64,000 nucleotides of DNA from an uncultured Gammaproteobacteria bacterium (GTDB lineage Bacteria > Patescibacteriota > Microgenomatia > Levybacterales > GWA1-39-11): NCBI GenBank assembly GCA_964425075.1, contig CAYRKM010000001.1, positions 459,060 to 523,059 of the forward strand, in the 5' to 3' direction. Shown in pieces: positions 9,781 to 12,935 of this stretch. Made by a program: the position numbers and the translations under genes. The stretch's first letter is position 1, and every line of letters begins with the position of its first letter. The notes beneath the pieces are model-generated. The model made no database searches. It saw only the letters and a program-made list of their open reading frames with translations, and was not told where the DNA came from.

Positions 9781-10974
9781 ATGGCAAGAATAAAAATATC
9801 AGAATTTAAAGCAAAGAAACTATTATATGAGTTTTTGCAAAAACCATATAGTGGAGTTTCTATTGATACTCATGATGAATTTTATGAAGATCTCCTCTCA
9901 AAAATGACTGATGGGAAAAAGTATGTCTTAAAAGTTGATCAGGGCGTAAAACAAAGAAAGAAAAAAGGCCTCGTGAGTTTTGATGTCACAAAAGAAAACG
10001 TAAAAGAGGAAATTGAAAAGTTAAAAGAAAAAGGATTTTCTTATTTTATTTTAGAAGAGTTTCTGGAGCATGAAGGATTTAATGAATTTTATTTTGCAGT
10101 AGAAAGAGTACGGGAAGGGAAGAAAATTCATTTTTCAACAAAAGGCGGAATTGATATTGAGGAAAATAAGGAAAGTATCAAAACTTTTATTTATCAGAAC
10201 GGAGAACAACTTGAGGAAATTTCAAATGACTTTGGATTAGAGAAAGAAACACTAGAAAGTATTCTTGATGCTTTTGATGATTATTATTTCTCATTTCTTG
10301 AGATTAACCCTCTTGTTGTAAAAAATAAGGAATTTTACTTTTTAGATACTGCAGTAGAAGTAGATAGTGAAGCCGAGTTTTTTGTAAGTGACGCATGGAA
10401 TAAAGATGACTTTCGTGAGGGAGTAAGGGCTGAAAAAACTGAGGAGGAGCGGGCAATTGAAGAGTTGAACGAAACAAGTTCTTCTGCTTTTAGTTATGAA
10501 ATTCTAAATCCTAATGGGTCAATTTTTTTAATATTGCAGGGAGGAGGAGCAAGTTTAGTTTTGGCTGATGAGATCTATGATAAAGGAATGGGTAAAGAAA
10601 TTGGGAATTTTGGAGAGTATAGTGGTAACCCAAATGCGGAGGAAACATATATTTATGCAAAAAACGTAATTAGTTCATTAATCAAATCTAATTCAACAAG
10701 AAAAGTACTTATATATGGCGGGGGGGTCGCGAACTTTAGTGATATTAGAATAGCATTCATTGGAGTAATTAAAGCACTTGATGAATTTAAAAGCGAATTA
10801 CTGAAGAATAAAGTTAAAGTTTTTGTAAGACGTGGTGGACCCCATCAGGAAGAGGGACTTGCCTTAATGAAGGAATTTTTGGAGAAAGAAAATCTTATTG
10901 GAGAAGTGCATGGTCCAGAATTGGTTTTGACAGATATTGTAGCTCCCGCGCTTGCGCACGTGGGAAATGACTAA
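9781..10974 (+). CDS. aclB: ATP-citrate lyase, ATP-grasp (beta/small) subunit
   Basis: 397 aa. Block-for-block resemblance to the N-terminal part of ATP-citrate lyase as I recall it: [82 protein letters not shown]. Confidence 0.8.
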   Translation: [397 protein letters not shown]

Positions 10975-11060
10975 ATCCTAATTTCTAATTAATTATGAAA
11001 TTTAGATTTGATTAGAAATTAGAGCTTAGAAATTGTAGCGCTAAAAATAAAAGTTATTTT

Positions 11061-12935
11061 ATGTTAAATATTAACGATCTAAAAACACTTAACCCGCGAA
11101 TTATTTCCATTGGTTCTCATCCGGCAATTATCCAGTCAGTTCTTGATTATGATTATCTAATAGGACGTGAGAAACCAACAGTTGCAGGAATACTTGCAAC
11201 AGGAAGAAAGTTTGAGCGTTACTTTTTTGGTAAAAGGGAAATTCTAATTCCAGTTTTTCAAACATTCAATTCAATTCCTCAAAATACAAAAGAAAAAATT
11301 ACAATGCTATTAAATGTCGCGTCCGGAAGGCGAGTGCTTACATCTACAACTGATGCAATAAATTATTTCGAAAATCTCAAACTCGGAGTCATTTTTGCAG
11401 AAGGAGTTCCTGAAAAACACGCGGTTGAATTGGGTGAATATGCAAGAAACAAAAATGTAACTCTTATTGGTCCATCAAGTGTTGGAATGGTTTTACCACA
11501 AAGTTTTAAGCTCGGTGCTATAGGTGGAATTCAATCAAAGCAGATTGTTTCATCTGGAATTTTATCTAAAGGAGGAGTATGCGTGTTGTCTGCAAGTGGA
11601 GGAATGGTAAATGAAATCATAAATGTAGTAGGACAGACTCAAAATAAGCTTTCTTTTGCTTTGTCATTCGGAGGAGATAGGTTTCCATTTTTAGAGCCAG
11701 TGGACGCCCTAAAAGCGGCAGAGAAAGATGAGAACACTAAAGCTATTGTGTATTATGGAGAATTAGGTGGAGAAGACGAGTATAAATTAGCAGATCTTTT
11801 GAAAGGAAGTCATCTTACAAAACCAGTTATTTGTTATGTCGGAGGAGTTATCTCAGATCTATTTGAAACCCCGCCACAATTCGGTCATGCAAAGGCGATG
11901 GCAGAAACCAGGCAGGAGTCTGCCCGTGCAAAAAGGGACGCGTTAAAAGATGCAGGGGGAATAGTTCCTGAGAGTTTTTCAGAATTTGTTGACGCGATAA
12001 AAGAACTTTCAGATTTCGGTTTTGAGAAATCAAATGGTACCCTTCGAAATTCTCCCCTCAATCAAATTCGGGACAGGCAGGGCAAGCAAGATGAGATAGA
12101 AGAGAATCAAAAGATTTCATCTGTTACAATTAACAATATGGATGATAGAAAACATGCTCTCATTTCATCAAGTATTTCAAAGGATGAAGAGGGGGACGTA
12201 AAAATTCTTGGAGAAGATTTATTGCCTTTTGCAAGAGAGAATTCCTTTGCAAAAATTGCTGCTTCGCTCTTTTTGGGTAAAAAAATTACGTCGATTGAAA
12301 CCGAGGAATTTGTGGATTTTATACTTAAGGTGTCTGTTGATCATGGTCCTTATGTTTCAGGTGCATTAAATACTATAGTTGCTGCTCGCGCTGGGAAAGA
12401 TTTGGTTTCCTCATTGGCTTCAGGACTTTTGACAATTGGTCCACGATTTGGAGGAGCCTTAAATGAAGCTGCAAAAAATTGGTATAAAGGCGTGGTAGAT
12501 GGTAAGAGTGCATATGATTTTGTGGAAGAATTCGCATCAAAAAAGATTTATATTCAAGGGATTGGACACAAAAAATATAGAGTTGATATGCCAGACCCAA
12601 GAGTAGAAGAGATAAAGAAGTTTGCAGACAAACTTGAGAAAAAGAGATTTATAAATTTTGCCCTTCAGGTAGAAAAAATTACAACTGAGAAAAAAGGAAA
12701 CTTGATTTTAAATGTAGATGGAGCAATTGGAGCGGTTTTGCTGGACTTTCTATCTGAAAAAGAAGGATACAGTGACGAAGAGTTGTGGAATTTGATAGAG
12801 GCAGAATTCTTTAATGCACTATTTGTTTTGTCTCGCTCTACTGGTTTTATTGCACATTTCCTAGATCAAAAAAGACTTGATGAAGGACTACTTCGGTTGT
12901 CCGAGGAAGACGTAGCAGATGCAAGCGCACAATAA
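11061..12935 (+). CDS. aclA: ATP-citrate lyase, CoA-binding / citryl-CoA lyase (alpha/large) subunit
   Basis: 624 aa. SucD-like CoA-binding region ([17 protein letters not shown]) and a phospho-His loop QFGHAKA (canonical GHAGA). C-terminal citrate-synthase-like domain: [67 protein letters not shown]. Confidence 0.8.
   Translation: [624 protein letters not shown]

Follow-up and report, generated by a model that had tools for sequence, protein, structure and literature searches.

The 64,000 nt stretch of DNA analysed here, termed the window and used as the frame for all coordinates, contains a pair of adjacent genes, aclB and aclA, which encode the small and large subunits of a two-subunit ATP-citrate lyase (ACL). 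This identification is solid, and the host is a bacterium of the Levybacteria lineage within the Candidate Phyla Radiation (CPR). The conservation of residues across the family indicates that the enzyme is very probably active and functional, with a site I that appears to have been rewired: the canonical GHAGA phospho-histidine loop and the basic residue that precedes the Ser-Gly-Gly motif of the catalytic centre are both missing, in the window and across a clade of CPR relatives. CPR bacteria are usually described as fermenters that lack a tricarboxylic acid (TCA) cycle and possess very few biosynthetic routes. The explanation we consider best overall, and reasonably probable, is that of a functional ACL with a rewired site I which would act as a stand-alone supplier of acetyl-CoA from citrate.

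Identification of the ATP-citrate lyase subunits

Both genes are found on the + strand, with aclB first and a gap of 86 nt between the two open reading frames (ORFs). The first, aclB (9781..10974), encodes a 397 aa small subunit consisting of ATP-grasp and citrate-binding domains, as assigned by Pfam and by searching the PDB, and the second, aclA (11061..12935), encodes a 624 aa large subunit in which CoA-binding and phospho-histidine domains, similar to the alpha subunit of succinyl-CoA synthetase (SCS), are fused to a citrate synthase-like citryl-CoA lyase domain. In the Pfam searches AclB scored 109.4 bits against Citrate_synth_N (cut-off 83) and 173 bits against the ACL-specific Citrate_bind (cut-off 26.8), and AclA matched Ligase_CoA/Succ_CoA_lig at residues 170-314 and the C-terminal domain Citrate_synt at residues 393-612.

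Solved structures were compared using phmmer against the PDB. AclA was colinear over the full length with residues 499-1091 of human ACL (ACLY; E 3e-112), and matched Methanothrix ACLY-B (E 1e-109) and Chlorobium AclA (E 5e-67) far more strongly than SCS-alpha (E 6e-23) or the citryl-CoA synthetase (Ccs; E 9e-20) and citryl-CoA lyase (Ccl; E 3e-16) of Hydrogenobacter. Similarly, AclB matched the N-terminal part of human ACLY (E 1e-59), Methanothrix ACLY-A (E 9.5e-59) and the Chlorobium enzyme (E 2.6e-39) well ahead of Ccs (E 1.6e-14). In the AlphaFold2 model of AclA the predicted local distance difference test (pLDDT) score averages 79 and exceeds 90 for most of the CoA-ligase half, and 306 columns of the N-terminal half could be superposed on human ACLY at 1.8 A. 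When this model was used as a Foldseek query, ACL large subunits were placed on top, with 6hxi_B first (E 4e-51), and SCS and Ccs trailed at about 1e-19 to 1e-20.

Database annotations would suggest a different identity, either a succinyl-CoA synthetase or a separate citryl-CoA synthetase and citryl-CoA lyase: homologues of AclA are annotated as 'succinyl-CoA synthetase alpha subunit', 'citrate/2-methylcitrate synthase' or 'hypothetical protein', and homologues of CCS/CCL and ACL in CPR and DPANN genomes have been reported to be mis-annotated as SCS or citrate synthase (bioRxiv 10.1101/2022.10.25.513756). Such an identity is refuted by the architecture, as SCS-alpha-like and lyase domains share a single 624 aa chain and the small subunit includes Citrate_bind, a domain specific to ACL, and by the scores, leaving it with practically no probability. 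Alongside the structural rankings, the NCBIfam models for SCS-beta (NF001913; 57.9 bits against a cut-off of 370), SCS-alpha (NF004230; 119 bits against 336) and citryl-CoA lyase (NF004869; 79 bits against 212) all fell far short, and those for citrate synthase scored below 60 bits against cut-offs of over 400. The original prediction that the two ORFs represent the small and large subunits of an ACL is consequently borne out, with both the best profile matches and the position in the tree described below being those of ACL rather than SucCD or Ccs/Ccl. The motifs quoted in its support are present in the sequence, although one was slightly misquoted (12 letters in the sequence, against ten as given).

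The AclA encoded by the window is peculiar in one respect. Alignment to relatives revealed a 29-residue insertion (12039..12125, +) in the variable linker between the domains, which is missing from all of the aligned relatives, including the 82%-identical P0002. It falls within a segment predicted to be disordered (residues 327-378, pLDDT < 50), and its GC content at third codon positions (GC3) is 0.41, as against 0.25 for aclA as a whole.

Conservation of catalytic and citrate-binding residues

Alignment to human ACLY located each element of the catalytic apparatus on the + strand of aclA. The AEGVPE motif (11397..11414) provides Glu114 and Glu118, corresponding to human E599 and E603, and these are kept in 19 of 19 representatives of the clade to which the window belongs and 45 of 47 others. 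The residues A178-S-G-G (11592..11603) contain the Ser-Gly-Gly equivalent to human S663-G664-G665, and the phospho-histidine loop, GHAKA (residues 275-279; 11883..11897), contains His276 and Lys278, equivalent to human H760 and G762; His276, like Glu114, is invariant in the clade. Within the citryl-CoA lyase domain (12132..12920, delimited by Pfam and alignment), His428 (human H900; DHGP, 12339..12350), His503 (H975; GIGH, 12558..12569), Arg514 (R986; PDPR, 12591..12602) and Asp553 (D1026; NVDG, 12711..12722) are found in all 19 clade representatives and are near-invariant across the family. The loss of catalytic residues, raised at the outset as a potential objection to an ACL, is therefore not observed: the catalytic His, Glu and Asp are all kept.

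In AclB, the corresponding motifs are VLKVDQ (9925..9942), which includes the ATP-grasp lysine, LEINPL (10297..10314) and QGGGAS (10537..10554), as well as the citrate-site motifs EYSG (from 10615), VANFS (10726..10740) and VRRGGP (10825..10842), again all on the + strand. This set (VLKVDQ, LEINPL, GGGAS, EYSG, ANF[S/T] and RRGGP) is common to the window, 13 related CPR sequences and ACLs of the eukaryotic type. Equivalents of the human citrate-binding residues, which we take to be G309, N346, T348 and R379, are all kept, with T348 represented by Ser in the window and Thr in its relatives.

In human ACLY, S663, G664 and G665 are residues of the catalytic centre, R662 is a key residue adjoining the reactive centre and the loop spanning 752-767 swings between the ATP and citrate pockets (PMC11365397). 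Residues 271-278 of the modelled AclA have low pLDDT, as expected of a swinging loop. Based on the residue-for-residue conservation with solved ACLY structures, AclB would bind MgATP and citrate, while His276 of AclA would be phosphorylated and, through movement of the loop, hand its phosphate to citrate; attack by CoA would then generate citryl-CoA, from which the citrate synthase-like C-terminal domain would release acetyl-CoA and oxaloacetate.

A clade-specific alteration of the active site

The sequence FGHAKA occurs in all 120 of the close relatives of AclA, and lysine is found two residues after the catalytic histidine in 18 of the 19 clade representatives but in none outside the clade. 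A second position covaries with it. Position 178, immediately before Ser-Gly-Gly, is K or R in 46 of 47 ACL representatives from outside the clade (R662 in the human enzyme), whereas within the clade it is A, S, T, C or V and never basic. When sequences were classified by both sites, 140 had A, S, T, C or G before Ser-Gly-Gly combined with Lys at the loop position, 78 had K or R combined with Gly, and none had K or R combined with Lys; the two others (P0123 and P0168), which both combine V before Ser-Gly-Gly with Gly in the loop, are basic at neither site. A comparison of alignment columns between the clade and all other sequences found 94 family-wide conserved positions to be shared, and consistent clade-specific changes of S to R91, N to Q161, G to K278 and F to W474, in addition to that at position 178.

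Because K278 is paired with the loss of the basic residue before Ser-Gly-Gly, and both are at the reactive centre, it looks, on this structural argument, as if one positive charge has been relocated within site I and onto the mobile phospho-histidine loop. The enzyme would then be a compensated, functional variant, since the lysine is fixed in the clade under strong purifying selection and the neighbouring basic residue has been lost.

It might instead be supposed that the substitution of glycine by lysine next to the catalytic histidine has abolished phosphoryl transfer, making the pair a decaying or inactive relic. GHAGA is near-universal in the superfamily that includes SCS and ACL, and its glycine may aid the mobility of the loop. 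However, A, W and L are also found at this position in other ACLs, such that GHAGA represents a consensus rather than a strict requirement of the family. Estimates of dN/dS by the Nei-Gojobori method are low for both subunits (0.04-0.07 for aclA and 0.03-0.07 for aclB), including the least saturated pair, the aclB genes of loci L001 and L003, for which dN/dS is 0.07 at a dS of 0.51. Furthermore, lysine is fixed in more than 140 sequences, the other catalytic residues are intact and, as described below, the genes appear to be coupled in an operon to the essential gene murB. A broken enzyme is therefore very unlikely, and we assign the relic only a minute probability. The GHAKA loop noted in the original prediction is real, but its suggestion that activity may be altered should not be taken to mean impairment, in view of the clade-fixed lysine, the purifying selection and the paired loss of the equivalent of R662.

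Another possibility is that the clade has acquired a new function, with the changes R91, Q161, A178 and K278 in site I adapting an ACL-like enzyme to a different carboxylate or thiol substrate, such as another hydroxy-acid or CoA precursor. The five clade-specific substitutions do cluster in the CoA-ligase half, two of them at the reactive centre, and literature searches found no biochemically characterised member of the family from CPR bacteria. This is nevertheless improbable, as the EYSG, ANF[S/T] and RRGGP motifs that bind citrate in AclB, all the lyase residues that would handle oxaloacetate and acetyl-CoA, and the 94 conserved positions have been kept.

Distribution and host genome

A HMMER pass over 1.84 billion representative proteins retrieved 150 with E <= 1e-30. 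The relatives of AclA form more than 120 clusters at 90% identity, are 57-82% identical to it and include several named as Levybacteria. A neighbour-joining tree, calculated from Kimura distances between 66 full-length sequences over 587 columns with 100 bootstraps and left unrooted, united the window and all lysine-bearing sequences in one clade with 100% bootstrap support. The named members of this GHAKA clade are Levybacteria and Dojkabacteria, both of the CPR, plus one unclassified 'bacterium'. Its nearest neighbours, with weak support of 47-60%, are one group that includes Saccharibacteria ACL and another that includes ACL from Micrarchaeota (Norongarragalinales, of the DPANN), both having GHAGA, and the ACL of the Chlorobiaceae lies in a distant part of the tree at 33% identity.

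When one genome per GTDB species was scanned, 16 loci were found with AclA 56-75% identical to that of the window, two of which are named Candidatus Levyibacteriota. Loci L001, L003-L011 and L013-L016 are titled 'uncultured Gammaproteobacteria bacterium', yet share the gene order of the window and encode EF-G proteins whose identity to its own reaches 95%; similarly, a partial homologue, P0082, carries the label Luteimonas sp. Such names are at odds with the synteny and EF-G identity, and look to be placeholders or the result of mis-binning.

A protein identical to AclA is on record on an NCBI contig of 835,411 bp, and the genome is approximately 0.8 Mb in size. The GC content of the window is 0.37. 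The GC3 of aclB (0.24) and aclA (0.25) resembles that of the neighbouring genes for EF-G (0.275), a HAD phosphatase (0.277) and MurB (0.255), and the gene order IMPDH-GuaA-EF-G-(HAD)-AclB-AclA-MurB recurs in related genomes. Contamination, recent transfer and decay can all be excluded because GC3 is native, synteny is conserved and dN/dS is low; the breadth of the clade likewise speaks against horizontal acquisition or contamination. In the ribosomal operon the gene for S5 is followed after 18 nt by that for L15 (50544..51437, +). The gene for uL30 is thus missing, which fits a host from the CPR, as its loss is among the traits of these bacteria (PMC9297842). The rest of the window is devoted to housekeeping, including the ribosomal operon, EF-Tu, EF-G, SecY, RecA, GuaA/GuaB, MurB, Adk and Cmk, together with envelope genes, DNA-repair genes and some mobile elements. 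The description of a reduced, low-GC genome with which the analysis began thus stands, resting on the GC content of 0.37, the 835,411-bp contig, Levyibacteriota as the closest relatives and the missing uL30.

Gene neighbourhood in Levybacteria

The gene downstream, murB (13381..14346, +), encodes UDP-N-acetylenolpyruvoylglucosamine reductase, as identified through its MurB_C and FAD_binding_4 Pfam domains. It follows aclA in every locus that reaches past the end of the latter, and in six genomes (L004, L005, L006, L007, L009 and L013) its start overlaps the 3' end of aclA by 14-23 nt. This overlap indicates that aclB-aclA-murB constitutes a putative translationally coupled operon in Levybacteria. 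The two genes are separated in the window by a small gene (12974..13324, +) of the 23S rRNA-intervening-sequence protein family (PF05635), a family of four-helix-bundle proteins; only the window, L001, L003 and L010 have it in this position. It is probably unrelated to the function of ACL, and seems to have entered the operon as a mobile or dispensable element.

Upstream, a Cof-type HAD phosphatase gene (8233..9066, +; Pfam Hydrolase_3) is a frequent neighbour of aclB, being syntenic in L005, L007, L008, L009, L012 and L013. A 177 aa ORF (9168..9701, +) lies between the two in the window, with no Pfam match and a native-like GC3 of 0.25. It has no tblastn counterpart in the 16 related loci, where either the HAD or the EF-G gene directly abuts aclB, and is preceded by a good sigma-70-like site (9130..9159) consisting of TTTGCA-18-TATAAT with a TG. 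A scan for promoters and terminators around the operon was uninformative, finding no more sites than in shuffled sequence.

Cycle partners and the context of other ATP-citrate lyases

Pfam scans of ORFs of at least 120 aa in the window detected no TCA cycle gene, citrate synthase included, in agreement with the original prediction that neither citrate synthase, aconitase nor any other such gene lay nearby. Aconitase, isocitrate dehydrogenase (IDH), the alpha and beta subunits of POR and an Frd-like flavoprotein, taken from the neighbourhoods of ACL in other lineages, were used as tblastn queries; none was detected in the 288 kb made up of the window and the 16 Levybacteria loci, a scope that takes in about a tenth of the genome. 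Between the Pfam scans and these searches, 2-oxoglutarate:ferredoxin oxidoreductase, fumarate reductase and PFOR were likewise missing from the window and the 16 loci. An ACL was fairly described as unexpected here, given a CPR host and the lack of any partner from the TCA cycle or reductive TCA (rTCA) cycle in the window and related loci.

Prokaryotic ACL is the classical marker of the rTCA cycle, so the pair could be read as the key enzyme of that pathway and the host as an autotroph. Metagenome surveys take aclAB as an rTCA marker in this manner (e.g. PMC9386943). In addition to the lack of partners across these loci, the small size of the genome and the distance from the Chlorobiaceae enzyme in the tree argue against such a reading, and neighbourhoods of the rTCA type accompany only the ACLs of other lineages with larger genomes. 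In L026, for instance, ACL is found with two aconitases and two IDHs, in L025 with Hdr/Frd-like proteins and OFOR, and in L024, an archaeon, with POR. Autotrophy through this enzyme is accordingly very improbable. The ACL large subunit of L025 (P0129; 6506..9517) has an unusual architecture, being 1003 aa long with around 400 additional C-terminal residues; it adjoins the Hdr-like, Frd-like and OFOR genes, and its host is probably an rTCA organism.

Elsewhere in the GHAKA clade and its sister groups, aclBA is found in a different type of company. In L029, a member of the clade from outside Levybacteria, a membrane acyltransferase (L029 1629..2729) of Acyl_transf_3, the family of the peptidoglycan and O-antigen O-acetylases, is encoded directly upstream of aclB, along with a sugar epimerase. 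In L021, from the sister group that contains Saccharibacteria, aclBA is situated inside a glycan cluster. The genes immediately before it (L021 6040..8822) are those for a DegT aminotransferase/GFO oxidoreductase and an acyltransferase with hexapeptide repeats, and it is succeeded by an epimerase and glycosyltransferases. Two further arrangements involve Tdh and Kbl, which convert threonine to glycine and acetyl-CoA. The most divergent locus of the GHAKA clade, L011, has the order tdh-like, kbl-family (the pair at L011 6475..8650), aclB, aclA, murB, with the kbl gene partly masked by a run of N, and in the DPANN locus L022/L023 the genes flanking aclBA (L022 7340..9779) were identified as those for Kbl, at 466 bits against a cut-off of 460, and Tdh, at 463 bits against 458. 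The aminotransferase adjacent to ACL in the DPANN locus and L011 was considered as a candidate aspartate aminotransferase, converting oxaloacetate to aspartate; this was rejected, as NCBIfam identifies it as Kbl (glycine C-acetyltransferase), paired with Tdh.

The reaction catalysed by ACL is close to equilibrium, and the enzyme might therefore run backwards, synthesising citrate and conserving ATP (acetyl-CoA + oxaloacetate + ADP + Pi -> citrate + ATP + CoA). In a genome with no ordinary citrate synthase, this would provide substrate-level phosphorylation or else supply a short oxidative branch leading to 2-oxoglutarate and glutamate. There is an ATP-yielding precedent in Desulfobacter postgatei, for which operation in this direction is documented (Moller et al. 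1987, cited in PMC9768450). The failure of the window scans to detect a citrate synthase accords with such a role, and a lysine on the phospho-histidine loop could in principle shift the equilibrium of phosphoryl transfer. Nonetheless, the aconitase and IDH of an oxidative branch were not found in the 288 kb of Levybacteria DNA, and the excretion of citrate would be likely to leave a fermenter with an excess of reducing equivalents. The genes around ACL, being consumers of acetyl-CoA (acyltransferases and glycan genes) and another producer of it (Tdh/Kbl), fit the production of acetyl-CoA, and reverse operation thus suits these neighbours less well than acetyl-CoA supply; we consider it unlikely.

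Proposed role

The simplest reading of these contexts is acetyl-CoA supply, because ACL repeatedly clusters with users of acetyl-CoA that act on envelope sugars and with a second route by which acetyl-CoA is formed. The synthesis of UDP-GlcNAc via GlmU consumes acetyl-CoA, and MurB acts two steps later. We suggest that ACL would operate alone, outside either the TCA or the rTCA cycle, and draw on citrate acquired from the host or the environment. The acetyl-CoA formed would go chiefly to N- and O-acetylate the sugars of the cell envelope, including UDP-GlcNAc/MurNAc and other glycans, with oxaloacetate as a bonus C4 precursor. In site I of the enzyme, the basic residue before Ser-Gly-Gly has been lost and a lysine stands two residues beyond the catalytic histidine, a relocated charge that would keep the enzyme active. 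The supply role, which would parallel that of ACLY in the eukaryotic cytosol, is a tentative proposal drawn from gene context, with a probability that we place a little short of even. A more ambitious version remains doubtful: that Levybacteria and related CPR lineages derive their acetyl-CoA principally or solely through ACL, which would depend on citrate from the host or community and be expressed together with the genes for peptidoglycan and glycan synthesis. Its active site would then have a layout not described before, the basic residue having moved from the N-terminus of the power helix to the phospho-histidine loop.

A number of points weigh against this explanation. The exchange of A178 and K278 took place only once in evolution, and the covariation therefore gives no statistical proof of compensation; P0123 and P0168, moreover, have a basic residue at neither site. 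The tree is only a neighbour-joining one, unrooted and with weak support (26-60%) for its deep nodes. Adjacency can be fortuitous in compact genomes, MurB itself uses no acetyl-CoA, and the supportive contexts comprise five different arrangements in only a handful of loci. One ATP is spent by ACL per citrate, which would be expensive for a fermentative symbiont. Finally, the role would call for a citrate transporter and GlmU, and the remainder of the genome may hold other sources of acetyl-CoA (PFOR, Acs or Pta-AckA).

Some other genes in the window touch on the same area of metabolism. A P-loop kinase encoded between adk and cmk (53441..54007, +) has a sub-threshold resemblance to the dephospho-CoA kinase CoaE (23.8 bits, cut-off 27), and could bear on the supply of CoA for ACL. 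The only other hints of organic-acid metabolism are a LUD-domain protein (23376..23981, +) and a protein with an FAD-linked oxidase C-terminal domain, similar to GlcD/D-lactate dehydrogenase (62866..63699, -).

Other features of the window

Synteny with the related loci is broken locally a short way past the murB region, where a STAND/AAA_16 NTPase and a transposase of the IS1595 family (15697..17946, -) have no counterpart in them. Beyond these are a protein of the proteasome subunit family (PF00227; 17979..18626, -) and a topoisomerase of type IB whose catalytic core is eukaryote-like (21867..22907, -), the latter being conserved in relatives at around 60-64% identity. Between the gene for EF-Tu and the ribosomal protein operon is that for a protein with a NUMOD3 motif, of the homing-endonuclease type (41269..41922, -); the adjoining L3 ORF (42081..43067, +) is unusually long at 328 aa, with only residues 126-214 matching the Pfam L3 model. 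Two patches, at 4001..6000 and 34001..36000, have a higher GC content (0.445 and 0.459, respectively) than the approximately 0.36 found elsewhere, and contain ORFs (5092..5715 and 34246..34965) without a Pfam match, the first of which has a 59%-identical homologue in L016.

Comparison with known systems and implications

The best structural match to the window enzyme is the ACLY-A/B of Methanothrix (Methanosaeta) concilii/soehngenii (6HXI, 6ZNW), which is likewise encoded by two genes with the domains in the same order, obtains scores on a par with those of human ACLY and, as here, belongs to an organism not known for rTCA autotrophy. It is, however, only around 34% identical, and it comes from a methanogen that lives freely and has a genome of full size. 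The ACLs examined from outside the CPR clade carry GHAGA with K or R before Ser-Gly-Gly, as the Methanothrix enzyme presumably also does. Human ACLY shares the catalytic and citrate-binding residues of the window enzyme, and the role proposed here is similar. The plant and fungal forms of eukaryotic ACL consist of two subunits, whereas animal ACLY is a single fused chain of around 1100 aa with a regulatory linker, GHAGA and R662. Its acetyl-CoA is destined for lipid synthesis and protein acetylation; by contrast, the sinks suggested for the window are cell-envelope sugars.

The rTCA AclBA of Chlorobium, Campylobacterota and Aquificota (6HXJ) agrees with the window in gene names, gene order, subunit sizes and chemistry, but is only 27-33% identical, with the weaker E values given above, and acts in a complete rTCA cycle. 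The Saccharibacteria and Micrarchaeota/Norongarragalinales enzymes, the nearest in the tree, are likewise encoded by stand-alone aclBA genes in small genomes; unlike that of the window, they have GHAGA with K before Ser-Gly-Gly and are unlinked to murB. CcsAB/Ccl of Hydrogenobacter (6HXQ, 6HXP) have homologous domains and perform the same two-step chemistry, but as separate proteins that score far lower.

The enzyme family is well known. What seems new is its conservation in Levybacteria, the combination of GHAKA with alanine before Ser-Gly-Gly, and the linkages to murB, acyltransferases and Tdh-Kbl, on none of which was anything found in full-text searches of the literature. Enrichment of aclAB in metagenome-assembled genomes of Saccharimonadia has been mentioned in passing (PMC12577380), and two major surveys of CPR gene content contain no mention of citrate (PMC7304191, PMC6744442).

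These findings have consequences beyond the locus itself. Where aclAB is used as a marker of the rTCA cycle, the CPR and DPANN genes would be miscounted as evidence of autotrophy. For the phospho-histidine loop found throughout the SCS/ACL superfamily, the clade also serves as a natural experiment, in which GHAKA with alanine before Ser-Gly-Gly can be set against GHAGA with K or R in that position. It is a standing question how central precursors pass to CPR bacteria from their hosts, and a conserved, selected and murB-linked ACL points to a concrete hand-off between host and symbiont, with citrate entering and acetyl-CoA and oxaloacetate resulting. If ACL were indeed the main source of acetyl-CoA, construction of the symbiont's cell wall would depend on an intermediate of its host's TCA cycle.

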